From a virus, in the IMG/VR virus record IMGVR_UViG_3300023215_000707, positions 1,150 through 65,149 of that record: a DNA stretch of 64,000 nucleotides; one strand, 5' to 3'. Shown here in pieces: positions 6,525-28,993 of the stretch (position 1 is the stretch's first letter; each line of letters begins with the position of its first letter). Below the pieces are notes generated by a model, which had not been told where the DNA came from, did no database searches, and saw only the letters and a list, made by a program, of their open reading frames with translations. The position numbers were made by a program, and so were the translations under genes.

Positions 6525-6691
6525 TTTAATCCCTCTTTCCAATTATTTATCATTTCATCTAACCCTACCATAAAATCAACTATATGATTTTGAATTTTTT
6601 CTATTTCTTTTAATTTCAAAGTCAAAGAATTAATTTTAGATTCTAAATTTTGTAAATGTCTTTTATCAGTTGGTGCTTTTTTCCAAAACAT
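6521..6691 (-). CDS. Small coiled-coil protein (56 aa)
   Basis: Hand-translated MFWKKAPTDKRHLQNLESKINSL...; fills the gap exactly with overlapping start/stop. Confidence 0.6.
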   Translation of the reverse strand: MFWKKAPTDKRHLQNLESKINSLTLKLKEIEKIQNHIVDFMVGLDEMINNWKEGLK

Positions 6692-7611
6692 TAAAACCAC
6701 TCCTTCAATAATTTTTGTTTATCGTCAATTTTACACTTAGATATATCCCAATTCATTGCATCAAAGACTGGCTTTACCTTTTTTATTACTTCGGATTCTG
6801 CTAAGAAAACCCAATCTGGATTAAAATTATCTAATTCGGGCAGAAGCCTTACACCAATATACGATGCTGGTTTTCTTTTCCCGTTCCAATCTGTATATGT
6901 TTCACCATTTAATTTACACTTTAAGTAATAAAATGAATCTGTTAATTTATTGTCGGGATTAATATGTTCATCATAATAAAATTGACCAGCACTACCCCCA
7001 CCAAAAACAGGGTTTTTACCTTCTAAGGTTTTACATTTATTCAATCTAGCATTGCACCTTTCATTTTCACATGATGAATCTGGAATAAGATTGAGAAGCC
7101 TTTTCAAGTAATCCACTTTATATTTTTTCCGACACCTAGAACATTGTAATTCTAATCTATGGGCTTGTATTCTTTTTCTTTTAACTAAATCTTCTTTAGA
7201 TATTTCTTTATCAAGAACAGCATTATACTTTGATTTAACATAAGAAACTATTTCTTCTTCTGTTTTTTGATTAATCCACATTTCTATTGTTTTCTTCTGA
7301 ACTTCTTTACCAGTATTAGATTCTGCAATTCTTTTCAATGAAAAACCAGTGCAGACAAATTCTGGTTCACTAAGATAGATACCATCTTTCCAAATGATAT
7401 ATCCTGCATTTTTATTTTTAGTAGTGCCTACCCCTAATACTGAATAGTATTTTTCAAATTCTAATTCTATTGGGTGAATATCTAAACCCATAACATTTGG
7501 AAAAACATTTTCTTGAATGTGGTTGTTTAATATATCTTTAATTTCTTCGGCCTTTTCAACAGAAGGTATGGGAATATAAAGAGAATCGGTATGAGCATAA
7601 ACTATTTTCAT
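6691..7611 (-). CDS. polB: Family B DNA polymerase, C-terminal subunit (motif C, palm/thumb)
   Basis: YAHTDSLYI (motif C variant), LEFEKYY, K..Y.G, PEF..TGF; own GGTGA RBS. Confidence 0.9.
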   Translation of the reverse strand: MKIVYAHTDSLYIPIPSVEKAEEIKDILNNHIQENVFPNVMGLDIHPIELEFEKYYSVLGVGTTKNKNAGYIIWKDGIYLSEPEFVCTGFSLKRIAESNTGKEVQKKTIEMWINQKTEEEIVSYVKSKYNAVLDKEISKEDLVKRKRIQAHRLELQCSRCRKKYKVDYLKRLLNLIPDSSCENERCNARLNKCKTLEGKNPVFGGGSAGQFYYDEHINPDNKLTDSFYYLKCKLNGETYTDWNGKRKPASYIGVRLLPELDNFNPDWVFLAESEVIKKVKPVFDAMNWDISKCKIDDKQKLLKEWF

Positions 7612-7615
7612 TAAA

Positions 7616-7747
7616 TCACCTATTCAAATATTTACTCAAAGGGCTAAATGAAATACTATTAACTCTATTAATGGTTAAATCAATTGAAGATTCATCCAAT
7701 TGATTTAGAAGTGAGGCGCAATCTCCTTCATGGATAGTATTAATCAT
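7616..7747 (-). pseudogene. Relic of an N4/N6 DNA methyltransferase (43 aa, internal deletion)
   Basis: MINTIHEGDCASLLNQLDESSIDLTI matches the usual MTase N-terminus just before the (T/D)SPPY motif, then runs into NRVNSISFSPLSKYLNR*. Confidence 0.7.
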
Positions 7748-9399
7748 TCTAATTCCCTCGCCTTGAATGCTACTTCTCTAATGGCTTCTCTAGCACTAGC
7801 AGTAATACTAGCCGCCAAATCAATATCATACCAACCAAATCCTCGTAAAGCGGTTGCGCCATAGATTGATGCTAATAATCTTTTTACAGCCATTTGCATT
7901 GAGTTCCATTTAACATATTCTTTTCTATTATCATTTTGTAATGCTTCTAACATTTTAGATTTATATTCTGCTCTTAATGGTTTTAGTGTAAGAATCATAT
8001 TAGGTAGTAATCCTAATTTATCAGTCTTATAATATTTCCAATCATATTCGGTAACTTTAGAAAAATCTCTAGGCGTTTTAATGTTCACTTTCAGTTCAGT
8101 TTCACTTTCACTTTTAGTTTCAAATGAGATGTTCCGAGCCAAAATGCAACTAGGATAAAGAGATGCAAAATCTAACGCCGCTACACCAAGCCACAACCCA
8201 TTAGTTTTTTCATCTAATGGATTGTAAATCATTGCGCCATCATATTTTATTTTATCTCCATATTCTCCAGTTGGTGCTTTCCACCATGCGTTTCTCATGA
8301 AATATACGCTACCCATATGTGATACAAAAAAACAATCTTCAAAAGGGGCTTTAACTAATTTTTGAATTGCTAAAATTCCTTCACTAAGCCCCATCTCTTC
8401 ATCTATCTTATAGAGTAATTCAGCATCTTGAATACAATATTCTAAATAATTTGTAGTATCTTCAAGCCACGCCTTCATAAAAAATTCATTTCTATCTGTA
8501 AATTTAGATTCTTTCTTTTTACCTTCACCAACAGATACACTAGCGCAATATTCTAATGATTGACTAGGTAAAGTTCCCCGCTGAGAATCCATCCATTGAC
8601 GTTCAAAAGCCAAATCAAGATTAAGACAAATTCTTCCCTTGATAGGTTGGTCGATAGACCCATAACTAATATCACCTAATATCTTATGACCTACATTTTT
8701 AACTTCATTATATGGAGATAACTTTCTAGGATTTAGACCATTAGCATGAAGCCTTTCTATTAGTTTTGGAATATCGGATTGAAGCCCCCACCAAGCAATT
8801 AACATATCGGGGTCTTGTTCTTGCATATCCTTTACAAATGCTTCAAGCATTTCTTTTTCGGAATCAAATGCACCTGTGGAATTTAGAGCAATTATTTCAT
8901 CTTCAGGAAACCAAGTGTATAACTTACTTTCATTAGTATAATTATCATAAACAGCAATACAAGTAATAGCCTCTTCATGTTCATGTCCTTCGGGCAACCA
9001 TTCCATATCCCAATACCATTTACGCAATTCATATTCGGGAACTTTCTTTAATTCATCTACACAATAACGACGCAGAATAGGCACATCTCCTTCCCATGTT
9101 GCGGCAAATTTCTTCTTTGCTGAATACATATCCTTTGGGTTGGAATAAAAAACCTTAGTTAGAGATTGCCCTTTTAGATTAATCCATTTCCCTTTTTGAT
9201 ATTTGAAAAATCCAGTTTGTTTAACTGGTTTATGTCCTATCATTTTATGACTAGTTGCATAGGTATCTATTTGTGAATCTATTGCTCTAATAAAAAAATA
9301 GGGCTGAAAATTATTTATTATTTTTTCTTTACGTTCCCTATGCTCATCTCTCCATCTAATCTTAACAGACTTATCAGCATCAGTCCAACAAATAATCAT
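7744..9399 (-). CDS. polB: Family B DNA polymerase, N-terminal subunit (exonuclease, motifs A and B)
   Basis: ExoI WDMEW, ExoIII YCIQD, motif A DFASLYPS, motif B KRLLASIYG; ends before motif C. Confidence 0.92.
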   Translation of the reverse strand: MIICWTDADKSVKIRWRDEHRERKEKIINNFQPYFFIRAIDSQIDTYATSHKMIGHKPVKQTGFFKYQKGKWINLKGQSLTKVFYSNPKDMYSAKKKFAATWEGDVPILRRYCVDELKKVPEYELRKWYWDMEWLPEGHEHEEAITCIAVYDNYTNESKLYTWFPEDEIIALNSTGAFDSEKEMLEAFVKDMQEQDPDMLIAWWGLQSDIPKLIERLHANGLNPRKLSPYNEVKNVGHKILGDISYGSIDQPIKGRICLNLDLAFERQWMDSQRGTLPSQSLEYCASVSVGEGKKKESKFTDRNEFFMKAWLEDTTNYLEYCIQDAELLYKIDEEMGLSEGILAIQKLVKAPFEDCFFVSHMGSVYFMRNAWWKAPTGEYGDKIKYDGAMIYNPLDEKTNGLWLGVAALDFASLYPSCILARNISFETKSESETELKVNIKTPRDFSKVTEYDWKYYKTDKLGLLPNMILTLKPLRAEYKSKMLEALQNDNRKEYVKWNSMQMAVKRLLASIYGATALRGFGWYDIDLAASITASAREAIREVAFKARELE

Positions 9400-9400
9400 A

Positions 9401-21140: not shown

Positions 21141-21332
21141 TCATTCTTCATCACTATCCAATTTATTATATAATGTATCTAAAGAAAGTTGAAGATTATT
21201 TATACATAAGAATAATGCTGTATGGTCTTTAGGGTTATCCGAAGTAATACCTATTTTTTCAAGATACATTTTCATGGCTTTAGGGGTATGCCTTAAATGC
21301 CAAACATACTCTCTAATTTCTTCTTTATTCAT
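21141..21332 (-). CDS. Hypothetical protein
   Basis: In-operon ORF. Confidence 0.5.
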   Translation of the reverse strand: MNKEEIREYVWHLRHTPKAMKMYLEKIGITSDNPKDHTALFLCINNLQLSLDTLYNKLDSDEE

Positions 21333-21823
21333 TCTCCATCACCATCAAAAGTAAAATTATCCCAAATCTTTTCACTATATTTAAAGAACTTCATTTTTTG
21401 ACTATTTTTCATCCACAACATATGTTCATTATTTCCGAGAACAATTGCAGTTAGCATTTGTATTTTCCATGTATTAATAGTTCTTCTATCAGTTTCGGAA
21501 AAATACGCTTTACCAAAAGGATGAGTGTGAATCCAACATTTGACCGGCAGTTTCATTCCCTCTACACTTTCTTCATTAATAAACGACACAAAAGAACCAC
21601 TACCAACACTAATAAATAAATCATTTTTACTATCAATTACAACTTGAATTTCGCTAGGATGAGAAAACGCCGTCAGGCTCATTTCCCAAATTGATTTCAA
21701 AAAATCATTTCTATATGGTTTAAATAAAGACTCAATTACAGAAGAATCAAATTGAGTTCTTATATTCTGCTCCCAATTACCATTTAGAATAGTCTTCGTA
21801 TTACCTGCCCGTATAATCATCAT
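21329..21823 (-). CDS. JAB/MPN+ (JAMM) metalloisopeptidase
   Basis: E58 ... H99-T-H101-x7-S109-x2-D112. Confidence 0.88.
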   Translation of the reverse strand: MMIIRAGNTKTILNGNWEQNIRTQFDSSVIESLFKPYRNDFLKSIWEMSLTAFSHPSEIQVVIDSKNDLFISVGSGSFVSFINEESVEGMKLPVKCWIHTHPFGKAYFSETDRRTINTWKIQMLTAIVLGNNEHMLWMKNSQKMKFFKYSEKIWDNFTFDGDGE

Positions 21824-22032
21824 GCTCCCCCCATAAAACCAACAACCAAATCTTGCTTATTGATAAATTCATGATAGGTTTGATGACCGGCAATGAACCC
21901 CCCTGCATCTCTTTTGAGTCCTTTGAATGATTCCCCACAAGCAGGGCAGGTGACTTTAACTACTTCCGCATCAAAATATGTTCCAATAGATAGTTTAATT
22001 TTTTGAATAATAGTTCCAACTTCTTCATTCAT
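21820..22032 (-). CDS. C2H2-type Zn-finger protein
   Basis: CPAC...H...H; between E1 and JAB genes. Confidence 0.6.
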   Translation of the reverse strand: MNEEVGTIIQKIKLSIGTYFDAEVVKVTCPACGESFKGLKRDAGGFIAGHQTYHEFINKQDLVVGFMGGA

Positions 22033-22592
22033 ATATTCACCACCTTGTAATCCGCAACATCATCATTATCTACAAACCATCGCTGAATCCATTGGGCGGC
22101 CATTCCAGCAATTGCAACATGAGTAAAATGTATGCCTTCTTTTTCACCTTTCCACTCAGTTGTTTGGCAGGAAAAACTACCACTTGGACCTGTTAAAACG
22201 GTATCAAACATATCTTTAGGGGTTTTATAACTAATAAATGCCCCATTTCTCCCCTGCGCCCTCAAATCTAACCACTGCGTTAATGACCTATAAAGTAGTC
22301 TTCGCACATCTAAATTATCTGCACAACATATCACCAAATCATAACCCTTGATTTGTTTTTCAGTAAGAACTAAAAATGGTTCTGCTTTAACCACAGACTT
22401 GTAACGGTCTTGCATTGCAACAACCTTCTTTAGTTCTATTTCATCTATTTCAAAATTTTGATAAGATATATTTTTCTTTTCTATAATGTCGGGGTCATTT
22501 ACTGTAATCTTATACAATCCTGTTTTATTCAAAAGAGGAATAAGAAAACTACCTATTCCCCCTGCTCCTATTATTAATATTTTTCTTTTCAT
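22029..22592 (-). CDS. E1-like (ThiF/MoeB family) adenylyltransferase
   Basis: IIGAGGIG, D.D.IE..N, CADN..R; single candidate Cys142 in FSCQ; no CxxC pair. Confidence 0.88.
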   Translation of the reverse strand: MKRKILIIGAGGIGSFLIPLLNKTGLYKITVNDPDIIEKKNISYQNFEIDEIELKKVVAMQDRYKSVVKAEPFLVLTEKQIKGYDLVICCADNLDVRRLLYRSLTQWLDLRAQGRNGAFISYKTPKDMFDTVLTGPSGSFSCQTTEWKGEKEGIHFTHVAIAGMAAQWIQRWFVDNDDVADYKVVNI

Positions 22593-22801
22593 TCATCATC
22601 ACCCTGTTCTTCAAAATTATGCCATTTTCTTAACCATTCTTTAGTTTGCTCAATAGTCATAGTTAATCCTATCTCCCAATTTTCATGCTTTCTAAATTCA
22701 GTTAGATACCATTCGGGATTTTTAGTTTGCATATCTTCTATTATCTCCATATACACAATCGCATGTCTTAACATGTCTGCTTTCCATATATTCATTTTCA
22801 T
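22589..22801 (-). CDS. Hypothetical protein
   Basis: ATGA-coupled ORF. Confidence 0.5.
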   Translation of the reverse strand: MKMNIWKADMLRHAIVYMEIIEDMQTKNPEWYLTEFRKHENWEIGLTMTIEQTKEWLRKWHNFEEQGDDE

Positions 22802-23163
22802 ATTTTCATCTCCAAATAATCTTCTAGAGTTTTTACATCCTTTTTGACTTCATCTATTTTAAATTCAAAGGGTGAATCGGTTAGTGATTCAGTTGGTGTT
22901 ACTACTGCTATTGCTACAATTGGTTTATTCAACATTGAAAATAGTTTATTTATTATTTTCTTTCTTGCTGAATCAAATTTTAATTTCCCACCTTCTTTCC
23001 AAGCAGTATAATTAAATTCTTCATCAATATATCCTTCAATATACATTATTAAATTAAGTAGAATATTATATTCTGCATCTTTTATTTTAGTAGGTGGATT
23101 AAATTCTTCATAATTTTCCATTAGTGACTCAAACAATTCTTGTTCTTTTACATCTAATTTCAT
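22798..23163 (-). CDS. Hypothetical protein
   Basis: ATGA-coupled ORF. Confidence 0.5.
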   Translation of the reverse strand: MKLDVKEQELFESLMENYEEFNPPTKIKDAEYNILLNLIMYIEGYIDEEFNYTAWKEGGKLKFDSARKKIINKLFSMLNKPIVAIAVVTPTESLTDSPFEFKIDEVKKDVKTLEDYLEMKI

Positions 23164-23378
23164 TCTTCTTCCTCAAGATTTAAACGATACTTTTCAATAT
23201 CAAATTTTACATATTCTTGTTGAGTTATAGTTAAACGATTAAAATGCATGGTGGCTTTTTCATCCATAATTTCCCAAAAATTTAACATCTCTTGTGTGTT
23301 TTCAAAACGATAAATTGTTTCCCTTTTTATTTGCCCAGTTGGATGAACCATTGTTCCCATTTTTATTTCTTTTTCCAT
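23160..23378 (-). CDS. Hypothetical protein
   Basis: ATGA-coupled ORF. Confidence 0.5.
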   Translation of the reverse strand: MEKEIKMGTMVHPTGQIKRETIYRFENTQEMLNFWEIMDEKATMHFNRLTITQQEYVKFDIEKYRLNLEEEE

Positions 23379-23380
23379 AG

Positions 23381-23623
23381 TTATGCCTCTTTTACTTCAT
23401 AATCTATATGGTTTTTAGGAATACGATGTTTACGCCTATCAATCATATTACGAATTAATTGTGCGGCAGAATTGATACCATTATCAAATCTCTTTTCAGC
23501 GACTTCATCCCCTGTTGGGACCATATCTGCTTTTATTCTTTCAATTACCATTCCTATTTCTTTTGATTGTAATATATTTTTTAATATTTCATATTCAACA
23601 TGAACTGTTGTTTTTGCTCTCAT
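23381..23623 (-). CDS. Hypothetical protein
   Basis: In-operon ORF. Confidence 0.55.
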   Translation of the reverse strand: MRAKTTVHVEYEILKNILQSKEIGMVIERIKADMVPTGDEVAEKRFDNGINSAAQLIRNMIDRRKHRIPKNHIDYEVKEA

Positions 23624-24254
23624 TTATATCTCTCCTAAATTCTTTTAATATAGTTTCACTAACCTTTAATTCACATAAAATCTTATAACGATGTTGGGGA
23701 GAAAACGTGTTTCCTTTTCCATCTCGGTCTTCTCTAAGAGAAATAACTCTATCATAGAGGATTCTACACCTCTCCTTACAAAACTTAGCATTTAATTGCC
23801 TTTCTGGTGTTATTCTTTCACCACAAGTTATACATTCATGGTGTTCTCTTAACATTTCTTTACACATAGGACTACAATATGGTTTATGAATTTCTGTATA
23901 TATAGAATTGGATTTATGACCCCAAAATTTCTCATCACAACTAGAGCATTTTATTATACTTTTTTTATTTTCTGGTCTTATTGCAACACAATCATCACAA
24001 GACACCTGATTAGTTCCTTTATGTGGTTTAAATTCATCACAAAAACCACAAATTCTTTCTGGAAAATTAGATTTTTCTTTTATTATTTGGCCTTTATGAT
24101 TTAGAAAAGTTATGGTTTCATATTTTCTTTTAGCCATAGTTCTTTTTAATGAATTTTGGCGAGTTTTATATCTACATTGAGAGCAAATATTTCTTGCGTG
24201 AAAAGTTCCACCCTGAAAAAAACGCTTCTCACAACGACTACAATCTCTCCACAT
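23595..24254 (-). CDS. Multi-zinc-finger (treble-clef/TRASH-like) protein
   Basis: Four CxxC...CxxC or CxxxC units, e.g. CSSC...YCSPMC and CITC...FCKERC. Confidence 0.65.
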   Translation of the reverse strand: MWRDCSRCEKRFFQGGTFHARNICSQCRYKTRQNSLKRTMAKRKYETITFLNHKGQIIKEKSNFPERICGFCDEFKPHKGTNQVSCDDCVAIRPENKKSIIKCSSCDEKFWGHKSNSIYTEIHKPYCSPMCKEMLREHHECITCGERITPERQLNAKFCKERCRILYDRVISLREDRDGKGNTFSPQHRYKILCELKVSETILKEFRRDINESKNNSSC

Positions 24255-25093
24255 TATCTAACCCCTGCAATAATATCACCGATAGTTAGACCATAGGTAT
24301 TTTTAATATTCAATAATTTTAATATGTTATTGTAATGCACCCTTATTGTAACCCCTGATACACTAAGAACTTCTGCAATCATTTTTTGAGTAATGTTCTT
24401 TTCTAATTGGGTTGTTTCTGTGAAATATATCAGGCCAGCCAAGTAAGGAGAAGTAGGGTGTTTAGATTCTAATGAATTAATATATTCATGAATATTAATA
24501 CATTCATTGATGAATTTTCTTGATTTTCCTAACCGCAAACAAAATTTCTCTAATAAAGAACCCACATTAACATTAGAAAATACATATGAAAGACCCAATT
24601 CTCTAGCAAATCCTCTAGAAAGTTTACTAATTTTCTTAGCCGGTAATTCTAACACTTTAGACATTTCTTGCAAGGTATAAGAATAATCATACTGCTTTAA
24701 AACAATATATCCTATTGCGGCGGCTCTAATTTCAAGAGGCATTTTAGTCGAGAAAATACCTTTCTTTATTAGAAGAACATAATATCTTTTCATTTCTTCA
24801 ATAGCAGGTGCGCTCATATTGAACTCACTGGCAACCATATTACAATATCTAAATCCTCTATTAATTGTCCGTTCATTAGAGGGAATGGAATGAATACGGG
24901 CAAGTCTTCTCAATTTATATGCCCCCTTTTCTTTAGAAACAAATCCGCCCAGTGTTTTATCATTATGTCTAACAAGTTCACCATCTTTAAAGGGGTTTTC
25001 TTCCATAATCAAACCATGAACTAAACCACAGTTAGGGCATTCTAGTGCTTCATTTTGTTTCACAATATCTATATTACATTCATCACATCTCAT
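24254..25093 (-). CDS. tfb: Transcription initiation factor IIB (TFB)
   Basis: N-terminal CDEC...CPNCG ribbon, two cyclin repeats, C-terminal ITQKMIAEVLSVSGVTIR HTH. Confidence 0.88.
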   Translation of the reverse strand: MRCDECNIDIVKQNEALECPNCGLVHGLIMEENPFKDGELVRHNDKTLGGFVSKEKGAYKLRRLARIHSIPSNERTINRGFRYCNMVASEFNMSAPAIEEMKRYYVLLIKKGIFSTKMPLEIRAAAIGYIVLKQYDYSYTLQEMSKVLELPAKKISKLSRGFARELGLSYVFSNVNVGSLLEKFCLRLGKSRKFINECINIHEYINSLESKHPTSPYLAGLIYFTETTQLEKNITQKMIAEVLSVSGVTIRVHYNNILKLLNIKNTYGLTIGDIIAGVR

Positions 25094-25133
25094 TGCGTCA
25101 CCCCTTTGGGATAACCGTTTTACTTCTCCATCT

Positions 25134-26357
25134 CTATTGAAACAGCGAAATTCTTTGGTTAGTTTGGTTTAGGGTATGCCTACTATTTAACCTTCCCTTA
25201 ATAGTTGATACCCTTTCAATTAAAAGATTGTCGTTTAACAGCCCTAATGCTCTAGTTACGAATTGGTCGCCAGTAGGTGAATTATTATCAAGATTATCTA
25301 CACAAATAGGCCCAATCCAATTTCCGTCAGTTAAGTCCCTGCTATGCTCCCAAAGAAAGGTAGATACGTTTTGTTGGCCTTGAGATTTCAAGCCTCTATC
25401 CGTAAGTTTCCAATCGGCAAGTTTACCATTAATATACATGATAGTGGGAGTTTGTGAAACATCTAGTAATTTATCTGGTGAACCCCAATTAATCTTAATT
25501 CTATTGGGGTATCTATTAGATAGGTGTATCATTAAATCTCTAGCCCTTTCTTTCACTACTTTTTCTGTTCTATTTTGGCTTAAGAAACAAAGCATTAACT
25601 GTTCTTCACTTTCAGTAAGGTTTCTTTTCATTAATTTGAACCATAGTTCCGAAGGACTTAGATTCGACCACTTACTTTGTTTTCTTTTCTTAATATAAGA
25701 ATTAAGATAAGAGTTGAATTGTTTTATTGTTAATTCACCCCAAACCCCATCGGAGATTTCTAATGCTACATTGTTATCAGAAATAAGATTAGCGTTAAGT
25801 CTGCATTCAATCTTCTTTTGATAACTACCTCTAATATCATCTTCTATATCAATGAAGAAATAATATGGCGCACGATTTTCTAATGCATAAGATACCATTT
25901 CTGGTAATTGAATATGTTTTATTAAAAATCTCTCCAATTCAAAAGAATCTTCTGTAAAACAAGACTTGTATATAGTTCTAGCAAGGGAAGAAATTAATAC
26001 TTCTTTATTAGCCATCATACCATTAATATAATACCGAGTCTTTGCCTTATTAAAAAGAATTACAAATCCTGAATCACCAATATAAATTGTGTGGCTAAAT
26101 TCCACAGGTGCATTTGCGGCTTCTTCTATTGGCCTATAATAACCCCTACGATATGTTTTATTGTAAAGATTTTTACGACTCATTTTCAATTCACCCATTA
26201 ACCAAAGTTTGATAGATTCTATAAGTGGATTAATTGCACTTCTATATCTAGTGGGGTATAAAGTCACTGTATGATAATGACCCTCTTCACCAAATCGTAT
26301 CATAGTTGAATCATATTGTCCTGAATCATCGGGTCTTCTAATTAATAATTCGGGCAT
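25134..26357 (-). CDS. 407-aa protein with C-terminal E2 (UBC)-like segment
   Basis: GPIC352VDNL...SP.....V...L.LL.D resembles the UBC active-site region G.ICLDIL...WSP...LL.D; same operon as Ubl, E1, JAB. Confidence 0.55.
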   Translation of the reverse strand: MPELLIRRPDDSGQYDSTMIRFGEEGHYHTVTLYPTRYRSAINPLIESIKLWLMGELKMSRKNLYNKTYRRGYYRPIEEAANAPVEFSHTIYIGDSGFVILFNKAKTRYYINGMMANKEVLISSLARTIYKSCFTEDSFELERFLIKHIQLPEMVSYALENRAPYYFFIDIEDDIRGSYQKKIECRLNANLISDNNVALEISDGVWGELTIKQFNSYLNSYIKKRKQSKWSNLSPSELWFKLMKRNLTESEEQLMLCFLSQNRTEKVVKERARDLMIHLSNRYPNRIKINWGSPDKLLDVSQTPTIMYINGKLADWKLTDRGLKSQGQQNVSTFLWEHSRDLTDGNWIGPICVDNLDNNSPTGDQFVTRALGLLNDNLLIERVSTIKGRLNSRHTLNQTNQRISLFQ

Positions 26358-26507
26358 TTATCTCACTTCACTTTTGTATGCTCTAATACAAGAATCATGT
26401 AATTCTTGTTGTATTTCGGTAATATAGGTTAATTGTTTACCACAAAGCCTACATCTAGTTGCAACCGGTCCTCTTAATCCTTTAGTATATTGGGGGTTTT
26501 TAGACAT
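26358..26507 (-). CDS. Small Zn-finger protein (49 aa)
   Basis: Hand-translated ...CRLCGKQL...HDSC... Confidence 0.65.
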   Translation of the reverse strand: MSKNPQYTKGLRGPVATRCRLCGKQLTYITEIQQELHDSCIRAYKSEVR

Positions 26508-26799
26508 GGTTATTCATCTTCCAATTCTTTTCTCTTTTCGTATAAGCAATCATATCTATATATGATTCATGTTTATATTCTATCCATTCTGTAATAAATT
26601 TTGGACTTTCTAAACCTTCACGAACCAAAATATTTCTAATTTGTTGGTTTACCAAGTTCTGTTTAGTCTCATCTTTCAAGTTTAAGTTCTTAATCGAATT
26701 AATATAATCAACCAAAAACTGATAATCTTCATTAGACATGGAACTTTCCCATGTTAATATACAATCATAAAATTCATGGATATTCATAAACACTGGCAC
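26500..26799 (-). CDS. Hypothetical protein
   Basis: In-operon ORF. Confidence 0.5.
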   Translation of the reverse strand: MPVFMNIHEFYDCILTWESSMSNEDYQFLVDYINSIKNLNLKDETKQNLVNQQIRNILVREGLESPKFITEWIEYKHESYIDMIAYTKREKNWKMNNHV

Positions 26800-27035
26800 T
26801 ATTTTTCACCTATTAATTTATGAGATTGGCAATGTATTAAATTAGGTAATGCCCATTTTTTACATTGTTTTTTAGTGGACACACTAATACATACACATCG
26901 TTCATGTTCAAGCGGTCCTTCTATTTTACAGGGATAACAATGGGTAGGGGTATAACCCCTTCTTTTACTCCTACGGGTCATTGGGTTTTTACACCTAATA
27001 CATGTCTCAGCATGTAAAGTATGTTTAAAATTCAT
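26799..27035 (-). CDS. Zn-finger protein
   Basis: CxxC...CxxC plus C-x9-C-x9-C-x2-H. Confidence 0.6.
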   Translation of the reverse strand: MNFKHTLHAETCIRCKNPMTRRSKRRGYTPTHCYPCKIEGPLEHERCVCISVSTKKQCKKWALPNLIHCQSHKLIGEK

Positions 27036-27133
27036 ATCATATCTCCCAGTAAAAAAATTACATTCTACTGTCTATATGAATATTATGCAAGTTCGGGGAA
27101 ATCCTATTACAGATACCCCATAAATGAACTTAA

Positions 27134-27334
27134 TTAAAGTCCGCCAACAATAGCGGGAATCAAATCAACTTCAGTCACTTCATCCCAATTTAGCGATGCA
27201 ATATCACTTCGATTAACCATTTCACCATCAGCAAAAACCCAGTGGGTTGCGTGTTCGTTTATATGGTCCATTATTTCGCTAGTTGCAATCGACATTTCAG
27301 TATGTCCTGTTTCGTTTAGTATTCTCAACTTCAT
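27134..27334 (-). CDS. Ubiquitin-like (ThiS/MoaD beta-grasp) protein ending GG-L
   Basis: 66 aa with beta-grasp order, WVFADG strand, C-terminus VDLIPAIVGGL. Confidence 0.8.
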   Translation of the reverse strand: MKLRILNETGHTEMSIATSEIMDHINEHATHWVFADGEMVNRSDIASLNWDEVTEVDLIPAIVGGL

Positions 27335-27588
27335 ATTTCTCTCTCCATTATTTTATTGTTCTGTTCACTTATTAAGGTGTTCTTTTCTTGTATTCTGCCA
27401 CCCATTACGGTTACTGTTTTCTCGTAGTGGGTTGCAAGATTCTCTAATTCTCTAACTCTATTCTGCATTTGTGTAACATATATAGTTAGGGCATTCTTAT
27501 CGGTTAATAATTCTTCTACATTACTAGCCAATACTTCATTTTCTTTAAGTTTTATGTTTAATTCTTTTTCTAATTCTATTTTTTTCAT
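27331..27588 (-). CDS. Coiled-coil protein
   Basis: Heptad pattern; ATGA overlap with the Ubl gene. Confidence 0.6.
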   Translation of the reverse strand: MKKIELEKELNIKLKENEVLASNVEELLTDKNALTIYVTQMQNRVRELENLATHYEKTVTVMGGRIQEKNTLISEQNNKIMEREI

Positions 27589-27730
27589 TCTTCTTCACCC
27601 TCTTGCATTAGGATATTAAATATATGTTTACCAAAAATTCCACACTTTCCATCATGAGATAAATGGGGATATTCTTTTTGAATTGTAGCGAAAATTAATA
27701 GTAATTGTATATTACTCTTTATATTTGTAA

Positions 27731-28993
27731 TCATTCTTCTTCACCACTTGGATTTTTTAATTCATCAATCATTTGACTTGCATCTCGCTTAGTAAGGTCT
27801 GTATTAGGTATTCCACCTAATTTACGAATATAAGATAATTGTTTTTCTGTAGCCTTATCATCTTCACCTTTAACAATCCTAATTGTCCTAAATAATTGCT
27901 TTTCCGACATGAAATTTCCACTGTGAATTTTACCAATCATATCTACTAAAAAGGAGATTTCCCAATCATTATTACCATGCGATTCAGCAGTAAATATTGG
28001 AATATTATGCTTCTCACAAAAATTAGGTATTCGCAATGCTATTTCTTTTTGCTCTTTTTCTATCCTCTTTTGTGTTTCTGCTCGTCGCTTTCGGTATAGT
28101 ATATTTTCCTCTTTTTCTCTAACTCTTCTTTGAGCCTCTTCTGCTTCTTTTCTTTGTTTAATTTCAGCGAGTCTTTCTTTACGTTCTGCTGTTGCAACAT
28201 TTATAGTTTCTTTATGTTTACCAATATTAAAGTAAAATATCAACAAATCATTCCAAAGTCTATTATTAGGATAACCTCTAATATTGGTTTGCGCTTTAGT
28301 ATTATCTGGATGATTCCATCGCCAAACAATTGATGCCATAAAATAATGAGGTGTTCCCATTTTACCTTCTGCTTTCTTACGAATTAATTTTGCATATTCA
28401 GTGCGAGCAGTTTCATAATCTTGATATGGTTTTCCCTGTCGAGTATTTATAAATAAATCTACTTCACGAACAACTTCAAACATTTTTTCAAATTCTTCCC
28501 CATTCTCTTTCCACCACCATTCGGATTTCATTGAATTTACAGCCTCTAGAACCCATTCTTTGACTCTTTCTTCGGTGACTTCATCTTCGGGCATTTCTAA
28601 ATTTTCTATTAAATGTCGAACAATCATCCAAAATCCAATATGTTCACTACCAACAATTTCAATCCTATTATTCTCAGTATTTTCAATTTCAAAATGCCAT
28701 GCGATAGAATGCCCACATATACAATAATGTGGATGAGATTGATTATGAGGCGATGGTAATACATCTTCTGCATCATCATTCATTGGCACATACCAAACAT
28801 TACCAGTTGCTCGCCATTCTTTTCTTGCTTCTTTCCAATTATCCGCTTCGGATAATGCTGTTAGATTATCTTTTAGGGCGATATTATATGCCCCTGTTGG
28901 GTCATCCAATCTCCCTGTAATTGCATCTAATAGAACATTACCTGTTGCTACAAATTCCGCTCCTTGTTCTCTAACTCTTCTTGCTATATTCAT
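27731..28993 (-). CDS. Large hypothetical protein with Zn-binding segment and C-terminal DUF3072-like motif
   Basis: CICGH..W...VGSEH; ATEKQL.YI..LG...LTK..AS..ID.LK. Confidence 0.6.
   Translation of the reverse strand: MNIARRVREQGAEFVATGNVLLDAITGRLDDPTGAYNIALKDNLTALSEADNWKEARKEWRATGNVWYVPMNDDAEDVLPSPHNQSHPHYCICGHSIAWHFEIENTENNRIEIVGSEHIGFWMIVRHLIENLEMPEDEVTEERVKEWVLEAVNSMKSEWWWKENGEEFEKMFEVVREVDLFINTRQGKPYQDYETARTEYAKLIRKKAEGKMGTPHYFMASIVWRWNHPDNTKAQTNIRGYPNNRLWNDLLIFYFNIGKHKETINVATAERKERLAEIKQRKEAEEAQRRVREKEENILYRKRRAETQKRIEKEQKEIALRIPNFCEKHNIPIFTAESHGNNDWEISFLVDMIGKIHSGNFMSEKQLFRTIRIVKGEDDKATEKQLSYIRKLGGIPNTDLTKRDASQMIDELKNPSGEEE

Follow-up and report, generated by a model that had tools for sequence, protein, structure and literature searches.

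We analysed a 64,000-nucleotide (nt) stretch of viral DNA (positions 1,150 to 65,149 of the IMG/VR virus record IMGVR_UViG_3300023215_000707, hereafter the window) and find on its minus strand four genes that point to a ubiquitin-like conjugation pathway encoded by the virus itself. They code for a candidate ubiquitin-like modifier (Ubl) of 66 amino acids (aa), a minimal E1 enzyme, a JAB-type metallopeptidase and a 407-aa protein (o407) with a UBC-like C-terminal domain, the candidate E2. That E1, Ubl and JAB work together appears very likely to us. That the virus runs a full cascade of its own, passing through Cys352 of o407, is the interpretation towards which we lean, with clearly less certainty. 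The source record is 72,790 bp long and estimated to be 78% complete. With a split family-B DNA polymerase, an RFC-like ATPase, a terminase, an ATP-dependent DNA ligase, GroEL and a TFB-like gene, it corresponds in gene content to what is reported for magroviruses, which infect Marine Group II archaea (PMC5434244). A preliminary description of the window had announced a virus-encoded pathway consisting of Ubl, E1, E2-like protein and JAB. All four open reading frames (ORFs) named there are present on the minus strand (Table 1), and the proposed pathway is supported by family matches, the GG tail of the Ubl, a model of the E1-Ubl complex, a UBC-like fold with an invariant cysteine and the co-occurrence of the genes; its E2, however, comes from a fold match of modest Z only, and the description of the operon was inaccurate.

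The ThiF-family E1 postulated in that description is well founded: Pfam ThiF (PF00899) matches at E 2.3e-17, with 63.4 bits against a cut-off of 28.1. NCBIfam adds matches to ThiF, PRTRC_ThiF and UbaA (the latter with E 1.5e-7), and the Cap2 E1-domain models of PADLOC are found at E 1e-11. When a profile of 13 relatives was compared with the PDB it matched MccB, UBA5, Cap2, Uba4, MoeB, ThiF and NAE; the best PDB matches of the E1 are 9egb-9egd. The protein shows the GxGGxGS loop, D33, K40/N41, Q45, K56 and D92/N93, together with an invariant GSFSC142Q. The nucleotide loop (G9-x-G11-G12-x-G14-S) and the Mg-ATP acidic pair (D92-N93) are invariant in the 13 relatives. Neither a UFD nor a rhodanese domain is present.

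Modelling of the E1-Ubl complex, one of the checks proposed in the preliminary description, gave an ipSAE score of 0.65, whereas the best of three controls reached 0.00. When the tool was calibrated, 58 of 80 solved complexes and two of 110 mismatched pairs attained the mark. Three runs share at least 97% of the contacts, and the pLDDT (predicted local distance difference test) of the partner is at least 88. In the model, residues 59-65 of the Ubl are placed against the glycine loop of the E1 (residues 9 and 11-14) and against its residues 90-94 (with D92/N93), 110-118 and 138-142. Gly64 contacts Cys142, and Gly65 contacts the E1 residues 13, 111 and 112. The predicted geometry is the canonical one, with the GG tail in the ATP pocket.

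The Ubl has no family match in Pfam, NCBIfam, PHROG or PADLOC. Its ending VGG-L, which had been noted before, belongs to a conserved type of tail: VGG plus zero to two variable residues forms the C-terminus in 17/17 and 69/70 readable relatives, and the protein ends exactly at GG in 5/17 and 15/70. Among 51 unique sequences of the mature Ubl, 19 are without lysine and 30 have a single one, located near the N-terminus. The modifier is thus nearly lysine-free, and the product of conjugation would therefore probably be a single tag and not a chain. In an AlphaFold2 model (pLDDT 74) the elements follow one another as in ubiquitin and ThiS (beta-alpha-beta-beta-3(10)-beta), with the second strand not formed. 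The model gave no alignment to beta-grasp proteins of the PDB at a useful Z, and a shape search of the ESM Atlas led to a 'ThiS family' cluster from Thermoplasmatota at a TM (template modelling) score of 0.56. The last basic residue is R42, leaving a tryptic remnant of 23 residues, which makes a tryptic diGly search unsuitable for this Ubl.

Likewise, the JAB with an intact JAMM motif was correctly recognised. Its five motif residues E58, H99, H101, S109 and D112 (E ... H-x-H-x7-S-x2-D) are invariant in 16 relatives. Pfam Prok-JAB (PF14464) matches with 24.8 bits, just below the cut-off of 25, and the PADLOC JAB model with E 2e-3. The corresponding profile finds the JAMM deubiquitinases AMSH-LP and Sst2 in the PDB at E 5e-4, and also Rpn11-like chains. 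A JAB is present throughout, including the cases in which GG is already the end of the Ubl (15/70), which suggests that it deconjugates and does not merely trim.

For o407 a cysteine motif like that of UBC proteins had been claimed. An invariant C352 and a UBC-like C-terminal fold, the latter in a predicted model, were indeed found; similarity to E2 sequences and an HPN motif were not. In the model, the part that spans residues 263-407 resembles the E2/UBC-RWD-UEV fold, in which a helix is followed by a four-strand meander, the cysteine loop and further helices. The Z values are modest (4-6); this superfamily supplies more than 40 of the 50 best matches. In a shape search of the Atlas, the cluster of BRE (a tandem UEV protein) ranked first and the RWD cluster of RNF25 seventh. 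C352 is the sole conserved cysteine of the protein, being kept in 91 of 92 cluster representatives. According to the secondary structure of the model it follows the fourth strand at a distance of about 15 residues and precedes the next helix by 10. This is the site, between strand 4 and helix 2, of the catalytic cysteine in E2 enzymes. The alignment of o407 proteins has a hypervariable insert between strand 4 and C352. At 50% identity, the members of this family among 1.84 billion proteins fall into 201 clusters, almost all alike in length, and sequence relatives beyond the family itself were not detected. A Foldseek comparison of the model with AFDB clusters and BFVD gave significant matches to unnamed proteins only; ESM Atlas searches by features or by the Atlas's own model of o407 (pLDDT 0.35) were uninformative. 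Judged by the modest-Z fold match of the predicted model and by the conserved cysteine, the C-terminal domain of o407 is a probable candidate for an E2.

The co-occurrence of the four genes, a further check suggested at the outset, gave a uniform picture, as they stand together in fixed order in every locus with sufficient flanks. In 19 loci anchored on the E1 (52-81% identity), Ubl, o407, JAB, a 420-aa upstream gene and usually GroEL are all syntenic. Another 80 loci were anchored on o407 (31-67% identity); all of those with enough flanking sequence (about 70) have the Ubl upstream and E1 plus JAB downstream, in the same order. The terminase, an anchor independent of the module, yielded 17 near-complete genomes. 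Fifteen of these have the four genes; in the remaining two a contig end falls within the module or next to it. Among the loci and genomes examined we found no relative without the module. It is a fixed core feature of the replication/early-gene arm of magroviruses and does not have the appearance of accessory cargo. In the 87.6-kb genome G305 (the record of locus L125) the JAB is found at 1-291 and the Ubl at 86840-87040, with E1 and the 407-aa gene missing between them; here the assembly break of a permuted or circular map lies inside the module. A scan of species genomes, which relies on one peptide pattern and says nothing firm on genomes of Poseidoniales, found the o407 family only on two short contigs in bacterial metagenome-assembled genomes (MAGs). 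These contigs, L101 (NZ_NZTP01000030.1, 'Altibacter sp.' MAG) and L102 (NZMJ01000151.1, 'Maricaulis sp.' MAG), are 7.5 to about 25 kb in size and carry homologues of o407 and of the viral E1. They are most likely magrovirus contigs mis-binned into bacterial genomes.

The arrangement of the genes differs from the single ATGA-coupled operon proposed in the preliminary description. E1, a 70-aa zinc-ribbon ORF and JAB are indeed mutually coupled, but the genes for Ubl and o407 stand outside that chain. Four-base overlaps link only o72, o121, o70, E1, Zn70, JAB and o63. For the Ubl gene the sole coupling partner is an 85-aa ORF on its upstream side, and an AT-rich gap of 98 nt follows it; 40 nt separate the 407-aa gene from the TFB-like gene. 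The four module genes are mixed with more than ten other ORFs; o407 is about 2.5 kb away from E1/JAB, with at least seven other ORFs between.

Table 1. Positions of the module genes and of further features discussed in the text (numbering of the window)
Feature	Position	Strand	Remarks
Minimal E1	22029..22592	-	187 aa, ThiF-family adenylation domain
Ubl	27134..27334	-	66 aa, ends AIVGG-L; candidate beta-grasp modifier
JAB/MPN+ metallopeptidase	21329..21823	-	Complete JAMM motif E58, H99-x-H101, S109, D112
407-aa protein (o407)	25134..26357	-	N-terminal ~260 residues, alpha/beta modules; C-terminal UBC/RWD-like domain
o407 C-terminal domain	25137-25571	-	Residues ~263-407; invariant C352 in GPIC[IV]DN
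TFB-like gene	24254..25093	-	Zinc ribbon plus cyclin repeats; directly downstream of o407
420-aa conserved neighbour	27731..28993	-	Upstream of Ubl gene; in the synteny block in nearly all loci
Zinc-ribbon ORF, 70 aa	21820..22032	-	CxxC...GGF[IA]GH..[YF]H; ATGA-coupled, between E1 and JAB
Basic zinc-finger ORF, 49 aa	26358..26507	-	CxxC...HxxC; read from the sequence
Family-B DNA polymerase (two ORFs)	6691-9429	-	Pfam DNA_pol_B positions 39-194 and 222-365
Myb/SANT-like protein, 186 aa	20580-21140	-	Two repeats; between JAB block and GroEL
ORF of 77 aa	20336-20569	-	Directly upstream of GroEL

Several observations weigh against a full conjugation cascade. The E1 begins only at position 21 of the ThiF profile, so that the N-terminal segment is absent, and it lacks the zinc-binding CxxC pairs, its sequence ending at residue 187. 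Two such pairs bind a structural zinc in many, though not all, members of the ThiF-MoeB superfamily. Because of these two features, competence for adenylation is only assumed here. In addition, the invariant Tyr44 aligns in the HMMER alignment with an arginine of 9egc which is part of the nearly universal E1 motif 'N-x-x-R-Q'; the invariant Lys40 might compensate for it. The good result for the E1-Ubl complex may in part reflect the model's memory of ThiF-ThiS-type complexes. As for o407, an HPN motif is missing, and no conserved His or Asn precedes GPIC, where the region is hypervariable. Sixteen members of the family gave no Pfam match, and none was obtained in the PDB, PADLOC, NCBIfam or PHROG. 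A comparison by hhalign of a 71-sequence alignment of the C-terminal domain with Prok-E2_B, represented by an alignment built from seven Cap2-like genes, returned a probability of 0.35%; Prok-E2_A, C, D, E and UQ_con were not among these comparisons. Foldseek, which had also been recommended, found no E2 for the o407 model in PDB and Swiss-Prot and returned only spurious whole-length rows (Hsp70, MHC). Moreover, the UBC superfold also covers the non-catalytic RWD and UEV domains. Finally, co-occurrence cannot separate function from shared ancestry, because all positives are related syntenic viruses and no relative without the module was found.

The main rival is a tagging without E2 resembling sampylation. 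Ubl, mini-E1 and JAB would then act as a triad in which the E1 alone conjugates the Ubl, and o407 would be an unrelated conserved neighbour, for instance a factor of transcription or replication whose RWD/UEV-like domain is non-catalytic and which acts together with the TFB-like gene. The archaeal SAMP/UbaA/HvJAMM1 system does function without an E2. It would also fit that the o407 domain shows no sequence similarity to any E2 family and no HPN motif, and that the genes in tight linkage with o407 are the TFB-like one and the 49-aa zinc-finger ORF, and not E1/JAB. However, a cysteine kept in 91 of 92 diverged relatives at the catalytic position of E2 enzymes is hard to explain for a non-catalytic scaffold, and in about 70 loci and 17 genomes o407 was always accompanied by E1, Ubl and JAB. 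We regard this possibility as a serious but rather unlikely one. A role of the Ubl as sulfur carrier, which would be adenylated and converted to a thiocarboxylate donating sulfur (e.g. for tRNA thiolation or a cofactor) with the help of persulfide donors and acceptor enzymes of the host, while the JAB only trims, seems improbable to us. The best family matches of the E1 are ThiF and MoeB, the Ubl equals ThiS in size, and among named clusters the one closest to it in shape belongs to the ThiS family. JAMM trimming after GG is known from the sulfur-carrier systems QbsD/QbsE and Mec/CysO. Since QbsC/QbsD/QbsE and CysO/Mec likewise combine a JAB, an E1 and a Ubl with residues after GG and yet are sulfur carriers, these three features alone do not exclude such a function. 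Against it stand the missing rhodanese domain of the E1, the lack of tRNA genes in the window and the universal presence of the JAB even where no trimming is needed (15/70); nor does it explain the conserved cysteine-bearing UBC-like partner. The absence of sulfur-transfer partner genes, already stated in the preliminary description, holds across the whole 72.8-kb record, with no ThiG, MoaE, rhodanese or TtuA/NcsA-type PP-loop enzyme (ATP_bind_3).

The same biochemistry could also serve another end, namely a virus-carried, Bil-like defence or superinfection exclusion in which proteins of competing viruses and not of the host are tagged. Defence cargo is usually patchy and variable, whereas all near-complete relatives examined have the module, and its place in the replication/early arm is fixed. 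Furthermore, Ubl and o407 match no PADLOC model. We consider this role very unlikely, despite the matches of the E1 to the PADLOC Cap2 E1 models (E 1e-11) and the fact that the characterised bacterial Ubl-E1-E2-JAB systems (CBASS Cap2/Cap3, Bil, Bub) are all antiviral (PMC10557695, PMC11601596).

If the conjugation cascade favoured here is realised, the Ubl would be made with an extra residue after Gly-Gly, which the JAMM peptidase would trim, as its motif and the variable tails suggest; the same enzyme would probably also reverse the conjugates. The E1, a clear member of its family, would bind the Ubl with the GG tail in the ATP site, as modelled, and would adenylate it. From there the Ubl may pass to the invariant Cys142 of the E1, the residue in contact with Gly64 in the model, and then, judged by fold and conservation, to the invariant Cys352 of the UBC-like domain. 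Speculatively, the N-terminal modules of o407 and the hypervariable loop in front of the cysteine would select the targets. It is also a speculation that TFB or defence proteins would be tagged, or that the proteasome would be fed in this way. In its most far-reaching form the idea would be that of a universal, private magrovirus cascade built on a new E2 family, with a UBC-like domain fused to its own target-recognition modules, a 49-aa zinc-finger partner and a coupling to the TFB-like factor, which tags host transcription or defence proteins (for example the host TFB or TBP) for removal while the virus installs its own factor. We think this extended version doubtful. If true, it would be the first complete virus-encoded Ubl cascade outside the viruses of eukaryotes.

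The genes of the left arm, up to about 36 kb, are on the minus strand, and some neighbours of the module are conserved as well. Upstream of o407 there is an apparent gap of 142 nt, which is filled by the 49-aa zinc-finger ORF; its TAA stop abuts the ATG of o407. Being shorter than 50 aa, it had been overlooked in the preliminary description. In 13 of 15 loci an ORF of 50-67 aa with the same CxxC...HxxC motif precedes the o407 homologue at close distance; the zinc-finger ORF is a conserved companion of the E2-like gene. It had no match in PADLOC, the sole library searched with this ORF. The TFB-like gene (Pfam TFIIB E 6.9e-5, 23.2 bits with a cut-off of 23.6; phrog_20431 E 2.4e-11) directly follows o407 in most loci and is syntenic in 15 of the 19 E1-anchored ones. 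It is a conserved neighbour and at most a possible member of the module. The 420-aa protein encoded upstream of the Ubl is similar to viral hypothetical clusters only. Its features are a Cys/His cluster (HPHYCICGH) and, at the C-terminus, a helix pair that weakly resembles DUF3072 (E 0.0044). The 70-aa zinc-ribbon ORF exists in a subset of relatives only, where it is found before JAB, after JAB or several kb upstream. It ends with GGA and was considered as a second Ubl, but this was rejected because of its zinc-ribbon motif and because the C-terminal GG is not conserved in more distant copies. Two Cys-rich ORFs of 78 and 219 aa, considered as RING-like E3, had no family support and no conservation by tblastn.

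Further observations concern the wider surroundings. The family-B DNA polymerase is distributed over two ORFs, which cover different parts of the Pfam profile (Table 1). Between the JAB block and GroEL a protein with two Myb/SANT-like repeats is encoded (Pfam E 1.2e-8 and 1.3e-6). The 77-aa ORF is located where GroES might be expected; neither Pfam nor NCBIfam gives a Cpn10 match for it, and its conservation is limited to the three closest relatives. Acidic C-terminal tails (...EEE, ...GEEE) are common on the coupled minus-strand genes, for example on the JAB homologues of L004-L019. At these tails the DNA reads GGTGAAGAAGA just before the next ATG (window 27588-27600 and 27731-27745), so that the tails probably serve at the same time as ribosome-binding site for the gene that follows.

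One part of the module has been annotated before, as the preliminary description had supposed might be the case: in GenBank a relative is labelled only 'putative ThiF family protein'. The main text of the magrovirus papers searched does not mention ThiF, JAB or ubiquitin, we found the gene set described in none of the papers on these viruses, and a full-text literature search found no paper combining 'magrovirus' with 'ubiquitin'. In the literature on archaeal viruses we found only the E1-like genes of Asgard viruses reported. Magroviruses are among the most abundant marine viruses (PMC5434244). As their Marine Group II hosts are uncultured, gene content is the main window on infection. The complete prokaryotic Ubl-E1-E2-JAB pathways known so far are antiviral systems of the host (Bil, Bub, CBASS), and a version fixed in viruses would reverse this picture. 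With it, mechanistic studies would gain a particularly small E1 of 187 aa and a 65-aa modifier free of lysine, and a new E2-like family would be added.

Among archaeal viruses, the Nidhogg viruses of Asgard archaea were reported to carry E1-like (ThiF) genes, the only such homologues described there, which were proposed to exploit the Ub, E2 and E3 of the host; according to the same study, no archaeal virus had previously been known to carry genes of the ubiquitin system (bioRxiv 10.1101/2021.07.29.454249). The magrovirus shares the ThiF/E1-like gene with the Asgard-archaeal viruses; unlike them, it carries modifier, E1, JAB and candidate E2 itself. With CBASS Type II it has in common that its E1 matches the Cap2 models of PADLOC and Cap2 chains of the PDB and that its JAB weakly matches Cap3-type JAB models. 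There, however, the 'Ubl' is the C-terminus of the cyclase and Cap2 is an E2-E1 fusion, whereas the magrovirus has a dedicated 66-aa modifier and separate E1 and E2-like proteins. Among the neighbouring genes examined we noticed neither a cyclase nor an effector, although no search was aimed at either.

In the BilABCD system, BilA is the Ubl, BilB the E2, BilC the JAB and BilD the E1, and BilC pre-processes BilA; the BilB of Type II has a hypervariable loop before its catalytic cysteine, for which the authors proposed a role in target selection (PMC10557695). The magrovirus module shows the same four roles as Type I/II BilABCD, and its JAB would pre-process a Ubl whose reactive glycine is followed by one more residue. 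Common to both are a hypervariable loop that separates strand 4 of the E2 from its (candidate) catalytic cysteine, the lack of a separate E3 and an E1 without UFD. Unlike BilABCD, the magrovirus genes are a fixed core module of an archaeal virus and not part of a host defence island. Their order is Ubl, E2-like, at least seven other genes, E1 and JAB, instead of one bilABCD operon. The E1 is a single adenylation domain of 187 aa, whereas BilD consists of inactive, active and mobile cysteine domains. The putative E2 domain forms the C-terminal third of a 407-aa protein that has no PADLOC or Pfam match and is not similar to Prok-E2_B, and the 66-residue Ubl has almost no lysine. In PADLOC the E1 matches through the Cap2 E1 models and the JAB weakly, and Ubl and o407 not at all, which does not amount to a BilABCD system. 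Sampylation (SAMP1-3, UbaA, HvJAMM1) and the Thermus TtuB/TtuC system use a small beta-grasp-type protein ending with GG, a ThiF/MoeB-type E1 without UFD and a JAMM peptidase, and the magrovirus has a corresponding set with its Ubl as candidate beta-grasp protein. The archaeal setting of sampylation is shared too, and the NCBIfam UbaA model matches the magrovirus E1. Sampylation has no E2, however, whereas the magrovirus triad is accompanied by a conserved, cysteine-bearing UBC-like protein. Moreover, the magrovirus E1 is about 80 residues shorter and without CxxC zinc sites, and a link to sulfur metabolism is not visible in the virus. Summarizing, the module is a member of neither system; BilABCD is its closest working analogue and sampylation its closest archaeal one.

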